From assembly GCF_000009965.1 (NCBI RefSeq), contig NC_006624.1, positions 1,290,001-1,322,000 of the forward strand: a DNA stretch of 32,000 nt, given 5' to 3'. This document shows, one piece after another, positions 1-31,274 of this stretch. The stretch is from Thermococcus kodakarensis KOD1 (lineage in GTDB: Archaea > Methanobacteriota_B > Thermococci > Thermococcales > Thermococcaceae). Each line of letters begins with the position of its first letter. Positions within the stretch are counted from its first letter, which is position 1. The notes beneath the pieces are model-generated. The model was not told the origin of the DNA and ran no database searches. It saw only the letters and a list, made by a program, of their open reading frames with translations. Position numbers and translations under genes: made by a program.

Positions 1-2862
1 AAGCGCTGGATGGAAGCGAGGGTTTTTGAGCCGGACAGGAAGGCAAAGCCCAAGGAGAAGAAGTTCTACATAACGGTTGCGTTCCCATACCTCTCGGGCC
101 ACCTTCACGTCGGCCACGCGAGGACGTACACAATACCCGATGTTATAGCCCGCTTCAAGAGGATGCAGGGCTACAACGTGCTGTTCCCGATGGGCTGGCA
201 CATCACAGGCGCGCCGATAGTCGGTATCGCCGAGAGGATAAAGAACCGCGACCCCAAGACAATCCACATCTACCGCGACGTTTACAAGGTTCCCGAAGAG
301 ATACTGTGGAAGTTCGAAGACCCGAAGGAGATAGTCAAGTACTTCATGAAGGCCGCGAAGGAGACATTCATAAGGGCCGGCTTCTCCGTTGACTGGACGA
401 GGGAGTTCCACACAACCAGCCTCTTCCCGCCCTTCAGCAAGTTCATAGAGTGGCAGTTCTGGACGCTCAAGGACATGGGGCTGGTCGTCAAGGGCGCCCA
501 CAGGGTCAGGTGGGATCCTGTCGTGGGCACTCCCCTCGGTGACCACGACATAATGGAGGGTGAGGACGTCCAGATACTCGAATACGTCATAATCAAGTTC
601 ATCCTTGAGGAGAACGGCGAGACCATCTACCTGCCAGCCGCGACCCTGAGGCCCGAGACAGTCTATGGAGTCACTAATATGTGGCTGAACCCAGAGGCAA
701 CCTACGTGAAGGCAAAGGTGAGGAAGGGCGACAGGGAGGAACTCTGGATCGTCAGCAAGGAAGCAGCTTACAAGCTCTCCTTCCAGGACAGGGAGATAGA
801 GGTCATCGAGGAGTTCAAGGGCGAGAAGCTCATCGGAAAGTACGTCAAGAATCCGGTGACGGGTGACGAGGTTATAATCTTGCCAGCCGAGTTCGTTGAC
901 CCTGACAACGCCACGGGCGTCGTCATGAGTGTCCCAGCCCACGCACCCTTCGACCACATAGCCCTCGAAGACCTGAAGAAGGAGACCGAGATACTGCTCA
1001 AGTACGACATCGACCCGCGCGTCGTGGAGGAGATAAGCTACATCTCGCTGATAAGCCTAGAGGGCTACGGCGAGTTCCCGGCTGTTGAAGAGGCCGAGAG
1101 GCTCGGAGTCAAGAGCCAGAAGGACAAGGAGAAGCTGGAGCAGGCGACCAAGAACATCTACAAGGCCGAGTACCACAAGGGAATCTTCAAGATAGAGCCC
1201 TACGCCGGAAAACCCGTGCAAGAGGTCAAGGAGCTTGTTGCCAAGGAAATGATGGAGAAGGGCATCGCCGAGATAATGTACGAGTTCGCCGACAAACCTG
1301 TCATAAGCCGCTTCGGAAACCAGGCCGTCATCAAGATAATCCACGACCAGTGGTTCATAGACTACGGAAACCCAGAGTGGAAGGCCAAGGCGAGGGAAGC
1401 ACTTGCTAATATGACCATCTACCCCGAGAGCAGGAGGGCGCAGTTTGAAGCAGTTATAGACTGGCTGGACAAGAAGGCCTGTGCCAGGAAGGTTGGCCTT
1501 GGAACACCGCTCCCGTGGGACCCGGACTGGGTTATCGAGAGCCTTAGCGACTCGACGATCTACATGGCCTACTACACCATAAGCAGACACATCAACCAGC
1601 TGAGGAAGGAAGGTAAACTCGACGCCGAGAAGCTCGACAGGGAGTTCTTCGACTACATCTTCCGCGAGCCCTTCAGCGAGGAGAAGGAGAGGAAACTGAG
1701 CGAGAAGACGGGGATTCCGGCGGAGACCATCCACGAGATGAAGGAAGAGTTCGAGTACTGGTACCCGCTCGACTGGCGCTGTTCGGCCAAAGACCTAATC
1801 CCGAACCACCTGACGTTCTTCATCTTCAACCACGTGGCCATCTTTGATAAAAAGCACTGGCCCAAGGGAATAGCGGTAAACGGCTTCGGAACGCTGGAAG
1901 GCCAGAAGATGAGCAAGAGCAAGGGCAACGTGCTGAACTTCATTGACGCAATCGAGGAGAACGGCGCCGACGTTGTGAGGCTCTACATAATGGGCCTGGC
2001 CGAGCACGACAGCGACTTCGACTGGAGGAGGAAGGAAGTGGGCAAGCTGAGGAAGCAGGTCGAGAGGTTCTACGAGCTGGTGAGCGAGTTCGCCACGTAC
2101 GAGGCCAAGGAAGGCGTCGAGCTGAAGGACATAGACAGGTGGATGCTCCACCGCCTGAACAAGGCCATTGAAGGAGCAACCAAAGCCCTTGAGGAGTTTA
2201 GAACGAGAACCGCTGTGCAGTGGGCGTTCTACACCGTCCTCAACGACCTCCGCTGGTACCTGAGGAGAACGGAGGGAAGGGACGACGATGCAAAGCGCTA
2301 TGTCCTGAGAACGCTCGCCGACGTCTGGGTCAGGCTGATGGCCCCGTTCACGCCTCACATCAGCGAGGAGCTCTGGGAGAAGCTCGGCGGAGAGGGCTTC
2401 GTCAGCCTCGCTCCCTGGCCCGAGCCGGTTCCGGAGTGGTGGAACGAGACGGTTGAGGCCGAGGAAGACTTTGTCAAGTCCCTCATAGAGGACATCAAGG
2501 AGATCATAACAGTCGCAAAGATAGAGAACCCGAAGAGGGCATACATATACACCGCTCCAGAGTGGAAGTGGAGGGTCGTTGAGGTAGTTGCTGAAAAGAG
2601 GGACTTCAAGGCGGCGATGGCAGAGCTGATGAAGGACCCTGAGATGAGGAAGCACGGCAAGGAAGTTAGCAAGCTCATACAGAGGCTCATAAAGGAAAGG
2701 GCCTTCGAGGTGAAGCGCATAGACGAAGAAAAGGCCCTTAGGGAAGCGAAGGACTTCATCGAGAAGGAGCTCGGCATCGAGATAATCATCAACCCGGAGG
2801 AGGACAGGGGCGGAAAGAAGAAGCAGGCCATGCCGCTGAAGCCCGCGGTGTTTGTGGAGTGA
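1..2862 (+). CDS. leuS: Leucyl-tRNA synthetase (archaeal class I aaRS); N-terminus truncated by the window edge
   Basis: The frame is open from base 1. It has the HIGH motif (HVGH in [14 protein letters not shown]) and the KMSKS motif ([10 protein letters not shown]). The length and N-terminal sequence closely resemble Pyrococcus LeuRS as I remember it. The stop is TGA at 2860-2862. Confidence 0.95.
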
Positions 2863-3335: not shown

Positions 3336-4517
3336 TCACCTCCTGTTTATGAACCATGGGTACATTTCCACTGTGAATTCAATTGGAGGTGCTTGGACGG
3401 TGTGCCTTGGGTGGGAAACCCAACAATTGTAGCCCAAGCAGATGATAACATCCTCTTCATAAACGAACTCTGCTTCACCCCTTAGCTTAAGCTCTATCAT
3501 GTGGAATGGTGTTCCCTTTTTAACGAATGGGACAACAACAGGGTGTGCCACGAATATTTTGCCCCACGCGGGAGAGCTGCTCAGTAACCCTTTTTTCTTC
3601 AGGTCATAAAACTGAAATTCAATATCGCGGTTGGCATCGATGTCGTCCGTGTACCATTTGAAAATGAGCCCCTTAGTGTAAGTCTCACTGAAGCCTGCTG
3701 CTGCACTTGGAAGGCCCTTAGCGTCGATCCCTATATTTAAGCCCCAAGTGACGGTTGGCTCTGATGAAGAACCACTGCCTTCTGGCCTGAAACTCCCCAC
3801 GCCAAAGTAGGCTTGTTCAGGTGAGGGATTAAGGATCGTTGCCCTTTCTCTGACCTCCTTAACTGCCACTCGGAAATTCTTAGGGAAATCTCTCTCACTG
3901 GGCACTTTTGCCTCATGGCTCATGTAGACGTAGTAATAATATCCCATTCTTGCTTCGGCTACCCAAAAATCAGCACCAAGCTTGTTGTACACATGAACTT
4001 TGTGCCCCTCTCTGGTTGTTATTTCCTCTGATGTAGTCACCGTGCTAATCCGGCCTATTGACGTCCACTCTCTTGGGGGTTCATCTGCGAGCGCACCTCT
4101 AACTTTGAGAGGGAGCTTTCCGAACTTTCTGGCCTCAATGTAGAAGCTTTTCGTCATGACTTCAACATCCGAGGCCTTAACATCGTACCCGAGGTAATAC
4201 AATGGGGCATACGCTCCTGAGGGAAGTCTTCTCAGGGCAATACCAACGAAAGTAGCATTACTGAACTCTTCAAGGTTTATCCTAAGTGTTAGTCTATCCC
4301 AATATTTCTGCAAAAACTGTTCAGCCATTTGTGTACTGGATTTTCCGGAAAAAGTTTTCAATGCAACATTATCCCCTGGGACTGGCAATGGCAATGAGGG
4401 CTCCTTTTGAGGCGATGGAGAAACTCCAACCTCTTCATACCCTCGAACCTCGGCAAGTACTACGCTGCCAACCACAAGTAGCCCCAGCAGGACTGCGAAC
4501 AAGGGTTTCCACTTCAT
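3336..4517 (-). CDS. Secreted or exported protein of unknown function (N-terminal signal peptide)
   Basis: Start chosen at the internal ATG (4517) because GAGGTG lies about 6 nt upstream. The N-terminus MKWKPLFAVLLGLLVVGSVVLAEV is a typical signal peptide. I recognise no motif in the remaining ~370 aa. Visibly AT-richer than flanking genes. Confidence 0.7.
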   Translation of the reverse strand: MKWKPLFAVLLGLLVVGSVVLAEVRGYEEVGVSPSPQKEPSLPLPVPGDNVALKTFSGKSSTQMAEQFLQKYWDRLTLRINLEEFSNATFVGIALRRLPSGAYAPLYYLGYDVKASDVEVMTKSFYIEARKFGKLPLKVRGALADEPPREWTSIGRISTVTTSEEITTREGHKVHVYNKLGADFWVAEARMGYYYYVYMSHEAKVPSERDFPKNFRVAVKEVRERATILNPSPEQAYFGVGSFRPEGSGSSSEPTVTWGLNIGIDAKGLPSAAAGFSETYTKGLIFKWYTDDIDANRDIEFQFYDLKKKGLLSSSPAWGKIFVAHPVVVPFVKKGTPFHMIELKLRGEAEFVYEEDVIICLGYNCWVSHPRHTVQAPPIEFTVEMYPWFINRR

Positions 4518-5687: not shown

Positions 5688-7055
5688 ATGATATTAAAAT
5701 TCATCGATCGGGAAGAGGAGCTCCGGGCACTTGAGGAGCTTTACGCCCAGGACAAGGCTCACCTCGTCCTCATCTACGGCAGGAGAAGGGTGGGAAAGAC
5801 CGAGCTTGTGAAGCAGTTCATAAATGGAAAGAAGGCCTTCTACTTCCTAGCTAAAAAAGAGCCGATGGAGCTTGAGCTGGATAGGCTCGTAAGGGCCTTC
5901 AACAGGAAGTTCAACGTCTTCATCGAGGCTGAGAACCTTGAGGAGTTCTTTGAGAGAGTAAAAGAGTTCGGAAAGATAGCCTTCGTAATAGACGAGTTCC
6001 CTTACTGGGTTGAGGAAGATAAGGGGATTCCCTCAACATTCCAGTACATCTGGGATGAGGTGCTGAAGGACTCAAAGGTTTTTCTCGTTCTGCTCGGTTC
6101 TTCGATCTCGACGATGGAGAGCCTTATGAGTTACAAGAACCCGCTCTACGGCAGGAGGACTGGTCAGATAAAGCTCCGTCCCCTTGAATTCTTCCACCTG
6201 AAGGAGGCTTTCCCGCGCTACAGCTGGGAGGAGCTCGTTAAGGTCTATGGAACTATAGACGGAATTCCAGCTTACTTCCAGTACTTCGATGACTCTCTTT
6301 CAGTGGAGAAAAACATCGAGAACAACTTCTACAACCGGGTGAGTGTCCTCTATGAAGACGCCGAGAGGTTGCTGAAAGACGAGCTGAGGGAGCCGACTAC
6401 GTACCTCAACATCCTGAAGGCCATAAACGACGGAAAGGCGAAGCTCACGGAGATAGCTAATGAGACGAGGGTCGCTGTGACGAACCTCCCGAAGTACCTC
6501 AAAGTTCTTGAGACCCTCGACCTCGTAAAGAAGGAGTACCCGATAAACCAGAGAAAGCGCGGGCGCGGTGTTTACAGGGTGAAAGACTTTTACCACCGCT
6601 TCTGGCTCCGCTTTGTCTACCCCTACCGCGATGACATAGAGATCGGAGCAATAAGCTTCGAGGACTTCCAGAGCGACTTCAACCGCTACCTCGGCGAGGT
6701 CTTCGAGAGCGTTGCCGGACAGTTCCTGATCAGGATGAACCGTCTCGGAAAGCTGCCCTTCAGGTTTACGAAGCTCGGAAGGTGGTGGCACAAGGGGGAG
6801 GAGATCGACTTGGTTGCCCTCAACAGCATCACAGGGGAAGCGGGCTTTTTCGAGGCCAAGTGGAAGAACTTGAGCGAAAGGGAAGCGAGGGGAATCCTGA
6901 AAGACCTTGAAAGAAAAGCGGAGCTCACGGGAATACCAGGGAATTACTTCGGACTGATCGGGAAGAGGATAGAAGGAAAAGAGAGCCTCAGAGAGAAAGG
7001 CTACCTCGTCTTTGACCTCGAGGATTTCAATGAAGTTGGGGAGGAAGGGCGCTGA
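5688..7055 (+). CDS. Archaeal AAA-type ATPase (Arch_ATPase/COG1672-like) with a DUF234-like C-terminal domain
   Basis: N-terminus MILKFIDREEELRALEELY followed by the Walker A motif GRRRVGKTE. Walker B-like FVIDEF. The C-terminal EIDLVAL...FFEAKWK resembles a PD-(D/E)xK signature. ATG at 5688 is preferred over the TTG at 5631, which overlaps the upstream gene. Confidence 0.85.
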   Translation: MILKFIDREEELRALEELYAQDKAHLVLIYGRRRVGKTELVKQFINGKKAFYFLAKKEPMELELDRLVRAFNRKFNVFIEAENLEEFFERVKEFGKIAFVIDEFPYWVEEDKGIPSTFQYIWDEVLKDSKVFLVLLGSSISTMESLMSYKNPLYGRRTGQIKLRPLEFFHLKEAFPRYSWEELVKVYGTIDGIPAYFQYFDDSLSVEKNIENNFYNRVSVLYEDAERLLKDELREPTTYLNILKAINDGKAKLTEIANETRVAVTNLPKYLKVLETLDLVKKEYPINQRKRGRGVYRVKDFYHRFWLRFVYPYRDDIEIGAISFEDFQSDFNRYLGEVFESVAGQFLIRMNRLGKLPFRFTKLGRWWHKGEEIDLVALNSITGEAGFFEAKWKNLSEREARGILKDLERKAELTGIPGNYFGLIGKRIEGKESLREKGYLVFDLEDFNEVGEEGR

Positions 7056-21074: not shown

Positions 21075-21151
21075 TGGTGCGGTGGCCGGGATTTGAACCC
21101 GGGCCAGCGGCGTGGCAGGCCGCTGTCCTAGCCAGGCTAGACTACCACCGC
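21075..21151 (-). tRNA. tRNA-Gly (anticodon GCC), CCA encoded
   Basis: The reverse complement folds as a cloverleaf: acceptor GCGGTGG/CCACCGC, D stem GTCT/GGAC, anticodon stem GCGGC/GCCGC with loop CTGCCAC, 4-nt variable region, T arm CCGGG-TTCAAAT-CCCGG, then discriminator A and CCA. Confidence 0.9.
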
Positions 21152-21254: not shown

Positions 21255-21332
21255 GCCCCGGTGGCCTAGTCTGGATAGGGCGCGAGGCTGCGGACCTCGA
21301 GGTCCGGGGTTCAAATCCCCGCCGGGGCGCCA
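21255..21332 (+). tRNA. tRNA-Arg (anticodon GCG), CCA encoded
   Basis: Acceptor GCCCCGG/CCGGGGC, D stem GCCT/GGGC, anticodon stem CGAGG/CCTCG with loop CTGCGGA, variable AGGTC, T arm CGGGG-TTCAAAT-CCCCG, discriminator G and CCA. Confidence 0.9.
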
Positions 21333-21574
21333 TAGAAACTTTTCTGGCGAAAAGTTTCATCAAAGAGGGAATGTCTTTTTAAACTGCTGAGTTTCAGCTA
21401 TTCTCATTACCAAATTAGCAGTTTTCAAGGGGTTTGCTCGCAGTATAACGCCCAACGAGCGTTAAAAAGAAGAAAAACCCAAATTCTCTTGCCTGTACAT
21501 TAGGAGAATCTCCATTCTCAGCCAATATCACGAAGACATTCAAGCTTTTGGTGAAGCTTTCTCCAAAAGCTTCC
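21333..21574 (+). repeat. Mosaic-array module type I, copy A1 (paralog of 30155-30397)
   Basis: It begins 2 nt after the tRNA CCA with the hairpin GAAACTTTTC-tggc-GAAAAGTTTC (21335-21358). The core hairpin is at 21447-21463. It ends with three AAGCTT hexamers (21542, 21554, 21567). It is alignable by eye over its whole length to B1, at roughly 70-75 percent. Confidence 0.85.
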
Positions 21575-21885
21575 TCGTGAAGTTTGATCAAGTTCGTGGT
21601 TCTCTTGAAATTGCCCTTCTAAAAGGATTTTCACGATAAATTAGCTAAAAGTGAGTGAATTCTTCGAGCATACTTAATTGGAAAGGAGTTTTCTCGCCTT
21701 GACGCCCTATGGGCGTCGATTAAAAAGCAAACTCACAAAGAGCGAGCGAACAAAAATGGAATTCACACTCCAAGACAGCATTCAAAAGGAAATCCACTCA
21801 AAACAACCCTCTAATCAAGAACCACAAACTTTGATGAAACTTTGCCGGGCAAAGTTTCTTTGGTGAAGCTTTCCCAAAAGCTTGC
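21575..21885 (+). repeat. Mosaic-array module type III, copy A2 (paralog of 30659-30946)
   Basis: The ~25-bp terminal inverted repeats 21580-21607 and 21816-21842 close the module. The core hairpin GACGCCC-tat-GGGCGTC is at 21701-21717. The 23-bp palindrome GAAACTTTGCC-g-GGCAAAGTTTC is at 21836-21858, followed by an AAGCTT hairpin at 21866-21883. Confidence 0.85.
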
Positions 21886-21904: not shown

Positions 21905-23248
21905 TCAGGCCCCCGCTCTCAGCTTCGCCAGTGCATCCTCCGCTGCCTGGAGTATCTGGTATCCGACTGGAGAAGCCGTGAGGAGCGGGTGAGTCGCTAT
22001 CTGGAGGGTGTAGAGCTCGCTAGCCGTAAGCCTCTTCTGTATGGCCAGTGCAAGAACGTTGATCATCTCGCCAACGCTCTTTCCACCGGCTAGCTGGGCA
22101 CCCAGAATGGCCCCCCTGTCCCTGGAGAATATAAGCTTGACCGTTACCATCGAAGTATCCTCGAACTTTGCTGGATGTCTGTCGGGGCCAGTAGCCCGTC
22201 CAACAATGACCTCAAAGCCCTCTCTCTTGGCGGCTTCCTCAGTTAGTCCTGCGGCGGCTAAGGTCAAGCCAGCAACGTGGGTGGAGTAAGCGCCTATTGT
22301 CCTCCTGTTCTCCCTGACTATCTGGAGCTTAAAGAGGTTCGCCCCTGCTATCCTCGCCTCGAAGGTTGCCGTTGAGGCTAGCATCAGAGGGAAGGGCTTT
22401 CCTGTAAAGAAGTCCCTGTGCTCGACGCAGTCGCCGACGGCGAATATGTCCGGGCAGGAGGTTCTCATGTACTCGTCAGTCCAGATGCCGTATCTTGTAA
22501 CTTTTAGACCTGTTTTTACTGCCAGCTCAACGTTTGGGCGGTAGCCCGTTGAGAGAATTACCAGATCGGCGGGGATTTCCCCACCTTCGACGAGCTTGAC
22601 ACCTTCAACGCGCTCTCTGCCGACTAGCCTCTCCACGTGCCCGTAAACAACGTTTATTCCAACTTCCTTGAGCCTGTTCTCGATCATCTCACTGAATTCG
22701 GGGTCGAAAGAGTTTCTCAACAGCCTGCTTCTGACAACTATCGTAACGTCCTTCCCGAGCTTTCTGATCTCGTCCCCAACTTCAAGGGCTATGAAACCGC
22801 CGCCGATAATGACAACCTTCTCGGCATCCTCTACTCTCTTCTTGAGCTCTTTGAGGTAGTGGTAGTCCTTGGAGACGGTGTACACACCCTCAAGCTCAAC
22901 GCCGGGGATGTCAGGGATCTGGGGTCTCGAACCAGTCGCCAGAACGAGCTTTTCCCAGCCTATCTCTCTCCCTGACTTCGTCAGGAGTGTCTTGGACTTG
23001 GGATTTATTTCCGTGACCTCATCAACCAGAACGTCGATGCCGAGGGGTTTGAGAAACCTCTCCGTTGGGAGAACATCATCCTCAACGCTCCTCAGGGTAC
23101 CGAAGATGTACGGAATCCCGCAAGGAATCATGGAAACGTCCTCTTTCTTGATCACGAGGACGCTTTTGTCGGGATAGAACCTCTTGGCAGAGATCGCAGC
23201 CGTTAGACCGCCAGCACTTCCACCTATAACAACCACATCGTACTTCAT
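21905..23248 (-). CDS. FAD-dependent pyridine nucleotide-disulfide oxidoreductase (NADH oxidase / NAD(P)H polysulfide or CoA-disulfide reductase family, single redox Cys)
   Basis: N-terminal FAD motif VVVIGGSAGG, a single-Cys motif SMIPCGIPY, an NAD(P) motif VVIIGGGFIALE and GD motif AVGDC. ATG 23248 is preceded by GGTGAGGT; the track start at 23260 is TTG. Confidence 0.87.
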   Translation of the reverse strand: MKYDVVVIGGSAGGLTAAISAKRFYPDKSVLVIKKEDVSMIPCGIPYIFGTLRSVEDDVLPTERFLKPLGIDVLVDEVTEINPKSKTLLTKSGREIGWEKLVLATGSRPQIPDIPGVELEGVYTVSKDYHYLKELKKRVEDAEKVVIIGGGFIALEVGDEIRKLGKDVTIVVRSRLLRNSFDPEFSEMIENRLKEVGINVVYGHVERLVGRERVEGVKLVEGGEIPADLVILSTGYRPNVELAVKTGLKVTRYGIWTDEYMRTSCPDIFAVGDCVEHRDFFTGKPFPLMLASTATFEARIAGANLFKLQIVRENRRTIGAYSTHVAGLTLAAAGLTEEAAKREGFEVIVGRATGPDRHPAKFEDTSMVTVKLIFSRDRGAILGAQLAGGKSVGEMINVLALAIQKRLTASELYTLQIATHPLLTASPVGYQILQAAEDALAKLRAGA

Positions 23249-26091: not shown

Positions 26092-26318
26092 TCTCTCACC
26101 CCCTATTTTTCTCTCCGTTAACCAATAGCATTTTTAGGTTTAAAAACTTTTGTAGATTGTTTTTTCACAGAAATGAACCGAAAAGAACTCCAAACTCAAT
26201 AAAAGAGACCATAGAATTGGATTTAGCTTCAATGTACAAAAAATTACATCTTAAGCGGCTCTAAAACGGCTGATTAAACGAAATGAATACATTTTACAAG
26301 AACTCAAAGACCCAACCG

Positions 26319-26326: not shown

Positions 26327-26358
26327 GTTATGGTTCATCTCTAAACAAGGTGAGAAAA

Positions 26359-27705
26359 ATGGCACTTGAGAAGCTCGGCCAAGCACTGAACAGCGCTCTC
26401 AAAAAACTCGCCCGTTCGAGCACCGTTGATGAGGCCACGATCAAAGAGATTGTGAGGGATATCCAGAGGGCACTACTCCAGGCAGACGTTAACGTCAAGC
26501 TCGTCCTTCAGTTAACAAAGCAGATACAAAAGCGGGCGCTCGAAGAAGAACCTCCCGCAGGTGTCAGTAAGAAGGAGCACATAATAAAGATCGTGTACGA
26601 AGAACTAACCAAGTTTCTCGGAACCGAGGCAAAGCCCCTCGAGATAAAGCACAAGCCGACCGTTATCCTCACGGTTGGAATCCAGGGTTCCGGAAAGACG
26701 ACAAGCGTCGCAAAGCTCGCCCGCTACCTTCAGAAGAGGGGATACAAAGTCGGCGTTGTCTGTTCCGACACCTGGAGACCGGGAGCCTACTACCAGCTCA
26801 GACAGCTTCTCGACCCGTTTGGCATAGAGGTTTTTGGTGATCCCGAGGAGAAGGACGCAGTTAAGCTCGCGAGGGAAGGCGTTGAGCACTTCCGTGAGAA
26901 GGGTGTTGACGTCATAATAGTCGACTCCGCGGGAAGGCACAAGGAAGAGAAGGGTCTCATCGAGGAGATGAGGCAGATAAGCGAGGCCATTAAGCCCCAT
27001 GAAGTCATACTTGTAATAGATGGTACCATAGGTCAGCAGGCGTACAACCAGGCAATGGCCTTCAAGGAAGCAACCCCCATAGGATCAATAATCGTGACGA
27101 AGCTCGATGGAAGCGCCAAGGGTGGTGGAGCGCTCTCAGCAGTAGCGGCGACGGGTGCTCCGATAAAGTTCATCGGAACCGGAGAGAGGATAGACGACCT
27201 TGAGCCCTTTGATCCAAAGCGCTTCGTTTCGAGGCTGCTCGGTCTCGGCGACATACAGGGCCTTCTGGAGAAGATAGAAGAGCTCCAGAAGGAGCAGGAG
27301 TTCAGGGAAGAGGACATGGAGAAGTTCCTGCGCGGAAAGTTCAACCTCAAGGACATGTACGCCCAGCTTGAAGCGATGCAGAAGATGGGCCCTCTGAAGC
27401 AGATACTCCAAATGATACCGGGACTTGGCTATTCCCTCCCGGAGGACGCAGTTAGGGTAGGAGAAGAAAAGCTAAAGAGGTACAAAGTCATAATGGACTC
27501 AATGACGGAAGAAGAGCTTGAAAACCCAGAGATCATCAACTATTCGAGGATAAAGCGCATAGCCAGAGGATCTGGGGCAACAACGGCGGAAGTAAGGGAG
27601 CTTCTCAACCAGTACAATCAGATGAAGAAGATGTTCAAGAGCTTGAATAAGAGAAAGCTCGCGAAGATGGCCAAGAAGTTCAATTTCGGGGGGCTGGGAA
27701 TATGA
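26359..27705 (+). CDS. srp54: Signal recognition particle protein SRP54
   Basis: N domain, then G-domain motifs [16 protein letters not shown] and TKLDG, then a Met-rich M domain ([23 protein letters not shown]). ATG 26359 is preceded by GGTGA. Confidence 0.95.
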
Positions 27706-30076: not shown

Positions 30077-30154
30077 GGACCGGTAGCCTAGCCAGGATAG
30101 GGCGGCGGCCTCCTAAGCCGCAGGTCCGGGGTTCGAAGCCCCGCCGGTCCGCCA
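30077..30154 (+). tRNA. tRNA-Arg (anticodon CCT), CCA encoded
   Basis: Acceptor GGACCGG/CCGGTCC, D stem GCCT/GGGC, anticodon stem GCGGC/GCCGC with loop CTCCTAA, variable AGGTC, T arm CGGGG-TTCGAAG-CCCCG, discriminator G and CCA. Confidence 0.9.
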
Positions 30155-30397
30155 TAGAAACTTTTCTAATGAAAAGTTTCACCAAAGAGCGAATGTCCTT
30201 TTGAGCGCCCTGCTTTTCAGTGATTCTCACAATCAATTTGCAATTCTCAAGGGGTTTGCTCGGAGTATAACGCCCAAAGGGCGTTAAAAAAGAAGAAAAA
30301 CCCGCACTTCCCTGCCCATCCATCAAGAGAATCTAACCTTATCAAGCCAATTCTCGGAGACATTCGAGCTTTTGGTGAAGCTTTTCCAAAAAGCTTC
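30155..30397 (+). repeat. Mosaic-array module type I, copy B1
   Basis: Hairpin GAAACTTTTC-taat-GAAAAGTTTC at 30157-30180. Core hairpin AACGCCC-aaa-GGGCGTT at 30269-30285. Terminal GAGCTT/AAGCTT/AAGCTT triplet at 30366, 30378 and 30391. Collinear with A1. Confidence 0.85.
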
Positions 30398-30658
30398 AGC
30401 GCTGGCGGAAGATTGGTATGCTTTCTTTTTAGATATGCCTGCTTTTGAAGGGTTTACTTCCAATTGGCTGATTCAAAAGGATTTTCTCACCGTATAGTGC
30501 CCGAAGGGCACTAAAAAGAAAGTCAAAAATCACAATTAGCGCGGGGATTTTGGAGTTAAACCCGCGCGAGCCTGCCTTCTTGAGAGCATACACTCCCTAA
30601 CAGGCGAGATCGAGGAGAAGGGCACACACTTTTGGTGAAGCTTTTTCTAAAAGCTTCC
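30398..30658 (+). repeat. Mosaic-array module type II, copy B2
   Basis: It starts AGCGCTGGCGGAAG. Core hairpin AGTGCCC-gaa-GGGCACT at 30496-30512. Long-range complement GTATGCT (30416-30422) / AGCATAC (30585-30591). It ends with the hairpin GAAGCTTTT-tct-AAAAGCTTC (30637-30657). Collinear with B4 at about 70 percent by eye. Confidence 0.85.
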
Positions 30659-30946
30659 TGCGCGAAGTTTGATCAAGGTTCGTAGCTCTTTTTCGGAATG
30701 CCAATTCACCGTGATTTTCCAACTCAAATGGCTTTTTGAGAGTGAGAACCCTTAATCCACCCTGTCAACTCGTGTTTAACTCTAAATCGGCGCCCTTTGG
30801 GCGTCAAAGAAAAGAAAACACCCTCTTCAAGAAGCTTCCTAAAAGGTTCTCACTCAAAAATGAGCACTTGCAGTCTAAAATCCTAAAATAAAACCCTCTT
30901 GAAGAAGAGCTACAAACTTTGATGAAACTTTGCCTGGCAAAGTTTC
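30659..30946 (+). repeat. Mosaic-array module type III, copy B3
   Basis: The 30-nt terminal inverted repeats 30665-30694 and 30901-30930 match at 26/30. Core hairpin GGCGCCC-ttt-GGGCGTC at 30789-30805. It ends with the 23-bp palindrome GAAACTTTGCC-t-GGCAAAGTTTC at 30924-30946. Confidence 0.85.
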
Positions 30947-31205
30947 AGCGCCGGCGGAAAAGAGGTATGCGTTTTTAATGAACTAATTTTTGAGTGGGTT
31001 TACTTTCGAGTTGCCAGACTTACAGGATTTTCCCCACAGTATAGTGCTCTTTGAGCGCTAAAAAGAAAGTTCGAAATCACAATTAACGAGAGATTTTTAA
31101 GAACAAACCCACACGCGAACCTGCTTTCTGGGGAGCATACACTCCCGATAAGCAAAGTTCGAGAAGAAGGGCACACTTTTGGTCAAGCTTTTTCCAAAAG
31201 CTTGC
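30947..31205 (+). repeat. Mosaic-array module type II, copy B4
   Basis: It starts AGCGCCGGCGGAAA. Core hairpin AGTGCTC-ttt-GAGCGCT at 31043-31059. It ends with the hairpin AAGCTTTT-tcc-AAAAGCTT (31185-31203). Confidence 0.85.
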
Positions 31206-31274
31206 TGGAAACGAAAGGCTTAAATACTTCAACACTTTTATTTTCTTCAGGTAAGAAAAAAGGAGGTGGTGGCC

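Follow-up and report, generated by a model that had tools for sequence, protein, structure and literature searches.

Repeat arrays downstream of two tRNA-Arg genes

The stretch of DNA analysed here, referred to as the window, comprises 32,000 nucleotides of the Thermococcus kodakarensis KOD1 genome (positions 1,290,001-1,322,000; offset from window to genome coordinates, 1,290,000). It contains three tRNA genes, TKt23, TKt24, and TKt25, whose coordinates in Table S8 of Jäger et al. 2014 (PMC4247193) agreed with those of the window after subtraction of 1,290,000; TKt25, listed there at 1320077-1320154, equals window 30077-30154. The 3' flanks of the two tRNA-Arg genes, TKt24 and TKt25, each held an array of non-coding repeat cassettes, designated regions A and B, respectively. 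The genes around these regions had housekeeping functions and encoded SRP54, a purine nucleoside phosphorylase-family protein, an Lrp/AsnC regulator, and a metallophosphoesterase. An earlier note on this DNA had described one repeat in each region, A2 in region A and B3 in region B, as a module closed by terminal inverted repeats of 25-30 bp with compensatory substitutions, and had read these repeats either as the closing helix of a ~290-nt RNA or as ends like those of a miniature inverted-repeat transposable element (MITE).

The arrays consisted of at least six cassette units bounded by terminal units of ~45 nt. Each terminal unit was a perfect hairpin of 8-11 bp, with the consensus [G/C]AA[A/G/C]C[T/C]TT..AA[A/G]G[T/C/G]TT[C/G], followed directly by a tail, A[T/C]CAAA(G); in the cassettes classified as type III, ~3 variable nt separated the tail from a core (GTRRYTC), next to which came a pyrimidine run. 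Ten sites consisting of the hairpin and AYCA were present in the window, and every one lay inside the two tRNA-Arg flank regions. On the plus strand, region B began with the tRNA gene, a hairpin with ACCAAAG, cassette I, and TTTTGGT with a hairpin, and continued with cassette II, TTTTGGT with a hairpin, a half hairpin with ATCAAGG, cassette III (B3), and CTTTGAT with a hairpin; it ended with cassette II' and TTTTGGT with a hairpin, after which came the next gene's promoter. Polarity was the same throughout region B. In the cassettes of types I, II, and III alike, a G+C hairpin at the centre preceded a purine tract, and this shared core indicated that the three types are variations on one frame. 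An inverted arrangement of hairpin, tail, and core at both ends was seen in type III and type I cassettes; in type II and several other cassette types, the ends were not complementary past the tail.

To collect related loci, which are given below as L-numbers, a pattern scan was run on one genome per species and returned at least 120 loci, at least ~34 of them in Thermococcus metagenome-assembled genomes (MAGs); a second pattern scan of metagenomes added 46 loci. The arms of B3 paired, as claimed, at 26 Watson-Crick and two G:U positions of 30 without gaps, and were the top ungapped 30-nt inverted repeat with a spacer of 60-460 nt in the entire window, whereas the best inverted repeats in 30 composition-preserving block shuffles of the window reached only 20-23 of 30. 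For A2, the coordinates of the arms (21580-21607 and 21816-21842) were correct, but the arms paired only when two indels or bulges were allowed and, without gaps, matched at 15 of 28 positions. The difference between the cores was borne out (GTGGTTC/GAACCAC in A2 and GTAGCTC/GAGCTAC in B3), with two positions altered on each arm, and the G.G and C.A mismatches common to both copies were real; the latter are shared because the left and right ends belong to different end subtypes. The left end, ..GCGAAGTTTG-ATCAAGGTTCG, is the 3' half of a CAAAC-type hairpin, and the right end, CAAACTTTGAT-GAAAC.., is an intact GAAAC-type hairpin, a pairing of subtypes that also occurred in L041, L017, and L082. 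At the junction preceding B3, GCGAAGTTTG was the 3' half of a hairpin, CAAACTTCGC-nnnn-GCGAAGTTTG, whose 5' half was missing; the intact hairpin was present in L041, L017, L082, and L126, and junctions of the same kind in L158 and L098. The AAGTTTG of the B3 left arm is therefore a half hairpin, and the left arm is not a free-standing sequence. The terminal repeats of 25-30 bp are thus real, but the arms of B3 and A2 are only the inner parts of the two ~45-nt terminal units of a ~300-bp non-coding foldback cassette (Table 1). The overlap of the 3' arm with a 23-bp palindrome was confirmed in both copies (30924-30946 in B3 and 21836-21858 in A2). The switch that had been proposed from this overlap is merely the built-in outcome of two similar palindromes in inverted orientation, and we found no support for a regulatory role.

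Table 1. Features of regions A and B in window coordinates; the final rows give sites at which tRNA introns of DPANN archaea begin with the hairpin, in the coordinates of their own loci
Feature	Position	Strand	Remarks
TKt23, tRNA gene	21075-21151	-	coordinates as in Table S8 of PMC4247193
TKt24, tRNA-Arg(GCG)	21255-21332	+	region A array begins 2 nt past CCA
Region A cassette, type I	21335-21573	+	hairpins 21335-21358 and 21553-21573
A2, 5' arm	21580-21607	+	half hairpin AAGTTTG, tail ATCAAG, core GTGGTTC (21596-21602)
A2, central hairpin	21701-21717	+	GACGCCC-tat-GGGCGTC
A2, 3' arm and terminal hairpin	21816-21858	+	GAACCAC (21819-21825), AAACTTTGAT (21826-21835)
A2, terminal hairpin	21836-21858	+	GAAACTTTGCC-g-GGCAAAGTTTC; part of the A2 3' end
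Solo end unit	21859-21884	-	hairpin CAAGCTTTTGGGAAAGCTTC and ACCAAAG; ~20 nt past the nox stop codon
nox, NADH oxidase gene	21905-23248	-	adjoins the distal end of region A
TKt25, tRNA-Arg(CCT)	30077-30154	+	region B array begins 2 nt past CCA
Region B cassette, type I	30157-30397	+	GAATGTC at both ends
Cassette I, left hairpin	30157-30187	+	GAAACTTTTC..GAAAAGTTTC and ACCAAAG; bounds region B type I
Cassette I, central hairpin	within 30157-30397	+	AACGCCC-aaa-GGGCGTT, then purine tract
Cassette I, right end	30377-30397	+	TTTTGGT and hairpin GAAGC..GCTTC; bounds region B type I
Region B cassette, type II	30398-30657	+	starts AGCGCTGGCGGAAG, ends CACACTTTTGGT and hairpin 30637-30657; ends asymmetric
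Junction	30658-30671	+	loop remnant CTGC and GCGAAGTTTG
B3, 5' arm	30665-30694	+	half hairpin AAGTTTG, tail ATCAAGG (30672-30678), core GTAGCTC (30682-30688), pyrimidine run
B3, inner inverted repeat, left	30733-30750	+	TTTTTGAGAGTGAGAACC; pairs with 30845-30860; family-conserved block
B3, central hairpin	30789-30805	+	GGCGCCC-ttt-GGGCGTC, then purine tract AAAGAAAAGAAAACACCC
B3, inner inverted repeat, right	30845-30860	+	GGTTCTCACTCAAAAA; partner of 30733-30750
B3, 3' arm	30901-30930	+	GAAGAA, GAGCTAC (30907-30913), AAACTTTGAT (30914-30923), first 7 nt of terminal hairpin
B3, terminal hairpin	30924-30946	.	GAAACTTTGCC-t-GGCAAAGTTTC; ATCAAAG next on minus strand
Cassette II', second type II	30947-31204	+	81% identity (match to 30565-30627)
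II', end hairpin	31184-31204	+	CAAGC..GCTTG; ~14 nt before the TFB recognition element and TATA box of the next gene (ATG 31275)
tRNA intron with hairpin start, L001	4380-4510
tRNA intron with hairpin start, L013	4355-4479
tRNA intron with hairpin start, L014	4431-4555
tRNA intron with hairpin start, L015	6184-6309
tRNA intron with hairpin start, L026	3449-3573
tRNA intron with hairpin start, L042	5767-5889
tRNA intron with hairpin start, L047	124-276
tRNA intron with hairpin start, L061	3589-3747
tRNA intron with hairpin start, L095	7280-7499
tRNA intron with hairpin start, L119	7450-7626

The cassette family in Thermococcus

In 205 kb of Thermococcus MAG loci, 73 sites with the hairpin and AYCA were found. 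The Thermococcus MAGs and metagenomes together contained ~40 complete units with both hairpins, 265-332 nt in length with a mode of ~300 nt, and 26 distinct two-armed type III copies. The cassettes had no open reading frame (ORF), being in every case too short for a protein, and several units were present per MAG. Overall identity among copies was only 40-65%; the features that the diverged copies had in common were the terminal units, the central G+C hairpin, and symmetric blocks such as a GGGTT/AACCC pair. The A-Y-C-A tail was present at 85 of 85 Thermococcus sites and 82 of 82 other archaeal sites, a uniformity that arose partly by construction because AYCA was required in the collection. 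The second base of the tail tracked the fourth pair of the hairpin: in the pooled Thermococcus sites, GAAAC..GTTTC hairpins mostly carried ATCA, and GAAGC..GCTTC and CAAGC..GCTTG hairpins mostly ACCA, a link that was repeated in DPANN archaea (L099 6022-6084 and L095). A different conserved hairpin, CGCGTTTCTTCTCGACGCG, which lies outside the GAAAC family, was found in the 3' flank of tRNA-Lys(CTT) in three species (L010 987-1064, L017 1464-1541, and L082 964-1041). Although T. kodakarensis serves as a model archaeon, the accessible literature yielded no account of these repeats, the motif string was absent from the open-access papers searched, and the word "repeat" did not occur in the KOD1 primary transcriptome paper.

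The position and the tail of the hairpins raised the possibility that the arrays encode structured non-coding RNAs linked to the tRNAs. In such a scheme, the array would be co-transcribed from the promoter of the tRNA, the hairpin and A(C/U)CA would form a tRNA-acceptor-like minihelix cut by RNase P, RNase Z, or another enzyme, and the type III arms would close an RNA rod of ~290 nt with its own function. It is favoured by the location of the hairpin 0-6 nt past CCA in 19 of 30 tRNAs of the collected loci and by the ACCA tail of 35 of the 85 Thermococcus sites, which resembles a discriminator base plus CCA. However, Rfam recognised tRNAs alone at gathering score in both regions, and no family gave a credible match even at an E-value of 5 or below.

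Covariation and folding of arms and hairpins

The substitutions in the arms had been taken as compensatory. The same core was present on both arms in 23 of the 26 type III copies (GTAGCTC, GTGATTC, or GTGGTTC), the three copies with unequal cores differed by transitions, and core pairs 3-5 had undergone 11-12 double changes each. However, the type of core was tied to that of the central hairpin, GACGCCC..GGGCGTC going with GTAGCTC or GTGGTTC and GCGCTCC..GGAGCGC with GTGATTC, which indicated that the signal consists of two or three subfamily types and not of many events. Core changes on both arms were upheld, but many independent compensations were not. Pairing between arms was 81.5%, compared with 77.8% when partners were shuffled among copies, and fell off beyond ~9 bp from the core. 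In the interiors, the halves of one element were no more complementary than the halves of different elements, and tests of interior identity and duplex energy were uninformative or negative. The arms contained 40 G:U versus 36 A.C pairs, a symmetry that gives no strand signal. The lack of a G:U bias in the arms and of element-specific compensation in the interiors argued against an RNA rod, as did the non-complementary ends, past the tail, of types I and II and other cassettes.

The hairpins behaved differently from the interiors. Double changes were found from G-C to C-G at pair 1, from A-U to G-C at pair 4, and from G-C to U-A at pair 9, the hairpins contained 7 G:U versus 3 A.C pairs, and the variable positions of both terminal and central hairpins stayed complementary. 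This argued for folding in a single strand, of either RNA or DNA, and against purely double-stranded protein sites; the maintained stems also count in favour of a structured RNA. The same is true of the folding of B3, which was far better than that of shuffles at both 37°C and 85°C. At 85°C, the closing helix of the B3 plus strand persisted (-14.6 kcal/mol, z of about -8), and the energy model also kept the inner helix and the central hairpin. The z-scores at 37°C against shuffles were -6.1 for the plus and -4.4 for the minus strand of B3, and -2.6 and -4.9, respectively, for A2. The only helices that RNAalifold retrieved from a MAFFT alignment were the terminal one, the GGG/CCC helix, and that of the central hairpin.

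Gain, loss, junctions, and polarity of the cassettes

Orthologous loci, called from a few flanking genes and tRNA identities, were compared between species. A divergent tRNA-Gly(GCC)/tRNA-Arg(GCG) pair was present in KOD1, L041, and L092. The tRNA-Arg(GCG) flank held cassettes I and III (core GTGGTTC) in KOD1, and a II-like cassette and a type III cassette of another subfamily, 48% identical to A2, in L041, whose Nox protein was 84% identical to that of KOD1. In L092, the tRNA-Arg flank was empty and an element followed tRNA-Gly(GCC), a flank that was occupied in L092 only. These comparisons showed that one and the same tRNA locus has gained, lost, or exchanged cassettes in different species. 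Since the orthologous tRNAs of some species have no element, the element is not needed for tRNA maturation, which is a further point against the tRNA-linked RNA. Among the matches listed, the closest relative of A2 was at another locus, L006, beside a different tRNA (80% identity over 312 nt). No cassette change between KOD1 strains was seen in the public KOD1 read assemblies, in which region A matched at 99.98% or more; contigs with the exact NADH oxidase product (123 blocks) matched the window at 99.95% or more, and the assemblies broke at 21816/21817, in the A2 3' arm.

The junctions between units lay inside hairpin loops, as in CAAACTTCGC-GCAG|GAAGC.. and GAAACTTTGC|AACAGCCTTT.., with a half hairpin against a complete one, and ~10 of 126 hairpins were chimeras with halves of two types. 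The tRNA-proximal unit was intact and the distal units had a truncated proximal hairpin, which suggested that the array grows from the tRNA end. In L091 (~290-341, minus strand), the hairpin after tRNA-Arg(TCG) was followed by a palindrome, ATCAAATTTGAT, without a cassette body; this arrangement is possibly an empty site or an excision footprint. In an orthologous set of tRNA-Leu(GAG) flanks from six species, the ~45-nt ends and the central stem were invariant, and the interiors were 70-80% identical with deletions of 18-75 nt. The conservation in place of ends and central hairpin is in keeping with a structured RNA, but the tolerance of such deletions is not. The purine tract lay 3' of the central hairpin on the tRNA-sense strand in all 23 tRNA-adjacent units with a recognisable central hairpin, and this fixed polarity likewise agrees with an RNA.

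These data also bear on whether the cassettes are ordinary cut-and-paste MITEs, in which a transposase would bind the ~45-bp terminal inverted repeats as double-stranded DNA and the copies would be decaying, functionless relics whose arms match only because the transposase demands identical ends. The terminal inverted repeats, the small uniform size without an ORF, the presence or absence at orthologous sites, and the subfamily structure of the ends are all expected of MITEs. However, target-site duplications, one of the checks that the earlier note had suggested, were absent, no direct repeats flanking the ~40 complete units, and near-identical copies were not seen at different loci; at 40-65% identity there were no young copies. 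No related autonomous insertion sequence (IS) was found in the loci, plasmids, or phages. Moreover, the ends were invariant in orthologues while the interiors drifted, variable stem positions stayed complementary, which a double-stranded binding site does not need, and the units had a strict polarity and targeted tRNA flanks. We consider an ordinary MITE quite improbable.

Of the two readings in the earlier note, MITE-like ends were nonetheless far nearer the evidence than an RNA closing helix, and the reading that we favour, although with only middling confidence, is that the cassettes are MITE- or REPIN-like, non-autonomous recombining or mobile DNA cassettes beside tRNA genes (REPINs being hairpin-forming doublets of repetitive extragenic palindromic, or REP, sequences). 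The hairpins would fold in single-stranded nucleic acid and serve as break-and-join sites for an enzyme of the host or of an element, for which an HUH/Y1-type single-strand transposase or a site-specific recombinase would be candidates. The arms of type III cassettes would match because the two ends must share an end type, or stem from one palindromic duplication, and not through compensatory evolution of a 290-nt RNA helix; promoters in some cassettes would give small transcripts as by-products. Several observations weigh against recombining or mobile DNA. All loci were gathered by means of the hairpin pattern itself, and frequencies are therefore biased. BLAST matched no cassette in plasmid and phage collections, no hairpin pair more than 630 nt apart that could mark an autonomous parent was present in ~0.6 Mb of Thermococcus loci, and no mobilising enzyme was found in the Thermococcus loci, plasmids, or phages. 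The lack of near-identical copies at different loci gives no sign of recent movement. The conservation of ends across speciation suggests a host-level function or concerted evolution, unlike a purely selfish element, and the fixed polarity and placement right past CCA fit co-transcription with the tRNA equally well.

Transcription from the arrays

Jäger et al. (PMC4247193) listed three start sites of orphan small RNAs, at 1311406(+), 1311594(-), and 1320419(-), in or beside the cassettes. The site at window position 21406(+) was in cassette I of region A, 23 nt past a TATA box, TTTTTAAA (21376-21383), and that at 21594(-) was within the A2 left arm, directed outward, 23 nt past a TATA box, TTTTAGAA (21624-21617, minus strand). 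The third, 30419(-), was in the region B type II cassette, 22 nt upstream, on the minus strand, of the hairpin opening cassette I. By inspection, the cassette promoters were not conserved between copies. That transcripts begin within cassettes speaks for a structured RNA, but of the three start sites mapped, two run antisense to the tRNA, and B3 contains none of those listed in that paper. Taking these lines of evidence together, we regard tRNA-linked structured RNAs as rather unlikely, although they form the main rival to cassettes of recombining or mobile DNA. An RNA held together by a long closing helix is the weaker rival to that reading.

Known RNA signals were looked for by inspection and rejected. 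The TGAT|GAAAC junction contains UGAUGA, as in a C/D box, without a CUGA partner, and GAAGC-type ends have UGGUGA. The central region (GGGTTT, pocket, hairpin, and AAACCC) has neither the ACA box of an H/ACA RNA nor a K-turn. Bulge-helix-bulge excision in Thermococcus was discounted in the same way, since the tRNA-hairpin and unit-unit junctions had no 4-bp helix with 3-nt bulges. A promoter or operator role of the hairpin was considered for L036, L080, L065, and L113, which have TATA-like boxes 10-14 nt upstream; these are better taken as promoters of divergent neighbouring genes that adjoin the end of the array, as is the case at window position 31226.

According to Tables S6 and S8 of PMC4247193, many of the other orphan start sites fall within ~500 nt of tRNA genes (TKt05, 07, 10, 14, 16/17, 31, 32/33, 34, 37, 38, 41, and 43), which suggests similar cassette arrays at those tRNAs. 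A further orphan start site in the window, at 26297 (1316297-, minus strand), lies ~50 nt upstream of and divergent from SRP54 (26350-27705), outside the family.

Distant copies of the terminal motif

The pattern scan also found the hairpin with ATCAAAA in MAGs of Micrarchaeota, Aenigmatarchaeota, Woesearchaeota, and other DPANN archaea. There, tRNA introns began with GAAACTTTTTnGGAAAAAGTTTC followed by ATCAAAAAC, at canonical as well as non-canonical positions and without exception on the sense strand. The introns of L047, L061, and L108 consisted of a 75-nt hairpin doublet and a 4-nt strand completing the bulge-helix-bulge motif, and such a motif with the hairpin as helix h' could be drawn in L047, L061, and L014. 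The DPANN motif was also seen past the 3' ends of tRNAs and past stop codons, in some places as tandem copies, and the copies included the Thermococcus variants GAAGC..+ACCA and CAAAC.. (L099, L095, and L062). The accessible papers on these introns made no mention of the hairpin at their starts, and the accessible literature gave no account of the DPANN motif in its other settings either. The presence of the same hairpin as the first helix of the introns, invariably on the sense strand, is again favourable to a structured RNA. We think it unlikely, if conceivable, that the hairpin and A(C/U)CAAA are a pan-archaeal signal for one machinery moving non-coding sequence into or beside tRNA genes. 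One process would then lie behind both the Thermococcus arrays and the transposing introns of DPANN tRNAs, with polarity fixed to tRNA transcription, and a possible route would be for single-stranded DNA to insert into the non-template strand that is exposed in heavily transcribed tRNA genes.

The same contexts allow the hairpins to be viewed as host signals in cis, namely terminators or 3'-end or stability elements of tRNAs and neighbouring genes, with the cassettes as tandem duplications. Consistent with such signals, the hairpins follow tRNAs, one coincides with the cbf5 stop codon in each of three Thermococcus species, one lies ~20 nt past the nox stop codon, and those of DPANN archaea separate stop codons from the promoter that comes next, in some cases as tandem copies; the DPANN versions have T5 runs. 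However, the Thermococcus versions have only T3-T4 runs, the same hairpin is found inside DPANN tRNA genes, where termination would be harmful, and many tRNAs have no hairpin or differ in this respect between orthologues; nor does termination need a body of 250 nt with a conserved length and a central hairpin. Host signals are as improbable, in our view, as ordinary MITEs. At cbf5, the GAAAC hairpin begins at the G of the TAG that ends ..PKLW* (L053, minus strand, hairpin at 7045; L079, minus strand, hairpin at 839; and L094, 7407), and the flank CTCTGGTA|GAAAC recurs at an unrelated small gene of a DPANN MAG (L050 3166-3179).

An intergenic multi-hairpin element without an Rfam match was present in many copies in Woesearchaeota and Nanoarchaeia-type MAGs; it consisted of a G+C hairpin with a TTCG-type loop, TTGACGGCGG, and a GAAAC hairpin with ATCAAAAA, often with a second hairpin, GTGCCATCTTCGATGGCAC (L021 ~3360-3460, L022, L054, L031, L034, L045, L055, L067, L070, L087, L089, L090, L100, and L112). 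Clostridia MAGs contained a very similar left part, CAAGGGCTTCGCGCCCTTGACGGCG with a hairpin and ATCAAAAACTT (Eubacteriales loci L012 ~4170-4260, L046 ~4080-4170, L063, and L104). The exact DPANN consensus, GAAACTTTTTGGGAAAAAGTTTCATCAAAAA, occurred in two IMG/VR contigs, L178 (10407-10433) and L183 (420-446), with a G+C content of 0.18-0.20; one of them is labelled a giant-virus MAG, and either mis-binning or a genuine viral copy could account for these two matches. The remaining 16 viral matches looked unrelated, and a plasmid or phage origin was set aside because the pattern-scan matches in viruses were mostly of this sort and BLAST gave none. The bacterial matches of the genome scan stood in unrelated contexts, such as CtsR-box-like repeats, and were set aside with the exception of the element found across both domains.

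Implications

If the cassettes are recombining or mobile DNA, three KOD1 orphan small RNAs that start in or beside them would have a genomic origin, and a tractable system would be at hand in which to seek an archaeal counterpart of REPINs with their REP-associated tyrosine transposases (RAYTs) or of attC-type hairpin recombination. Cassettes would also put repeated sequence beside tRNA genes, at which Thermococcus chromosomes are known to break in inversions; for one crossover, a supporting figure legend of Cossu et al. (PMC5495485) mentions "strictly conserved sequences immediately following" two tRNA genes. Judging from that legend, these sequences may be the same flank repeats. That the cassettes share their end motif with tRNA introns of DPANN archaea is also relevant to the spread of tRNA introns in archaea.

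Comparison with known systems

The cassettes resemble bacterial REP sequences and REPINs in that the unit is a short palindrome beside a conserved short motif, and in that two inverted units make a longer hairpin (L057, L041, L099, and L047). They are likewise extragenic, non-coding, and non-autonomous, keep their pairing via double changes, and have no target-site duplications. However, REPINs are bacterial doublets mobilised by RAYTs, whereas the cassettes are archaeal and their doublet has a ~250-nt body with its own central hairpin; the DPANN mini-versions of 65-75 nt are nearer the size of REPINs. The cassette motif, AYCA, is on the inner side of the palindrome, and the arrays are polar and tied to tRNA 3' flanks, unlike those of REP and REPIN sequences. 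With MITEs such as Sulfolobus SM1-SM4, the Neisseria Correia elements, and the enterobacterial repetitive intergenic consensus (ERIC), the cassettes share a small size without an ORF, terminal inverted repeats, foldback potential, polymorphism between relatives, and promoters and transcription in some copies. They differ from MITEs in that no target-site duplication was seen and no parent IS was found in the loci, plasmids, and phages searched, that identity between copies is low, that the ends stay conserved in place, that polarity is strict, and that units join inside hairpin loops.

The palindrome-associated transposable elements (PATEs) derived from IS200/IS605 are similar in having subterminal hairpins at both ends, no target-site duplication, and oriented insertion; the hairpins of PATEs are recognised as structure, and insertion takes place beside a short motif. 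PATE-like movement via single-stranded DNA would account for the polarity of the cassettes and the covariation of their hairpins. Unlike those of IS200/IS605, however, the cassette ends are inverted repeats of each other, and the spacing between CCA and the hairpin is not constant (0-6 nt), unlike in PATEs. Integron attC arrays, such as the Vibrio cholerae repeats (VCR), also consist of cassettes of one polarity parted by imperfect palindromes in which structure, not sequence, co-varies, with recombination within the palindrome, and growth from one fixed end is suggested here as well. The hairpin consensus SAANCTTT..AAAGNTTS does not fit the RYYYAAC...GTTRRRY of attC, no integrase adjoins the array, and the cassettes are non-coding and mutually homologous, in contrast to integrons.

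Mobile archaeal tRNA introns, known from Thermoproteales and, at non-canonical positions, from ARMAN/Micrarchaeota, differ from the Thermococcus arrays in that the Thermococcus motif is outside the tRNA and the cassette borders have no bulge-helix-bulge. They are alike in their terminal motif, since in DPANN archaea the same hairpin with ATCAAAA forms helix h', and its occurrence at both canonical and non-canonical intron positions implies that one sequence has spread among tRNA genes.

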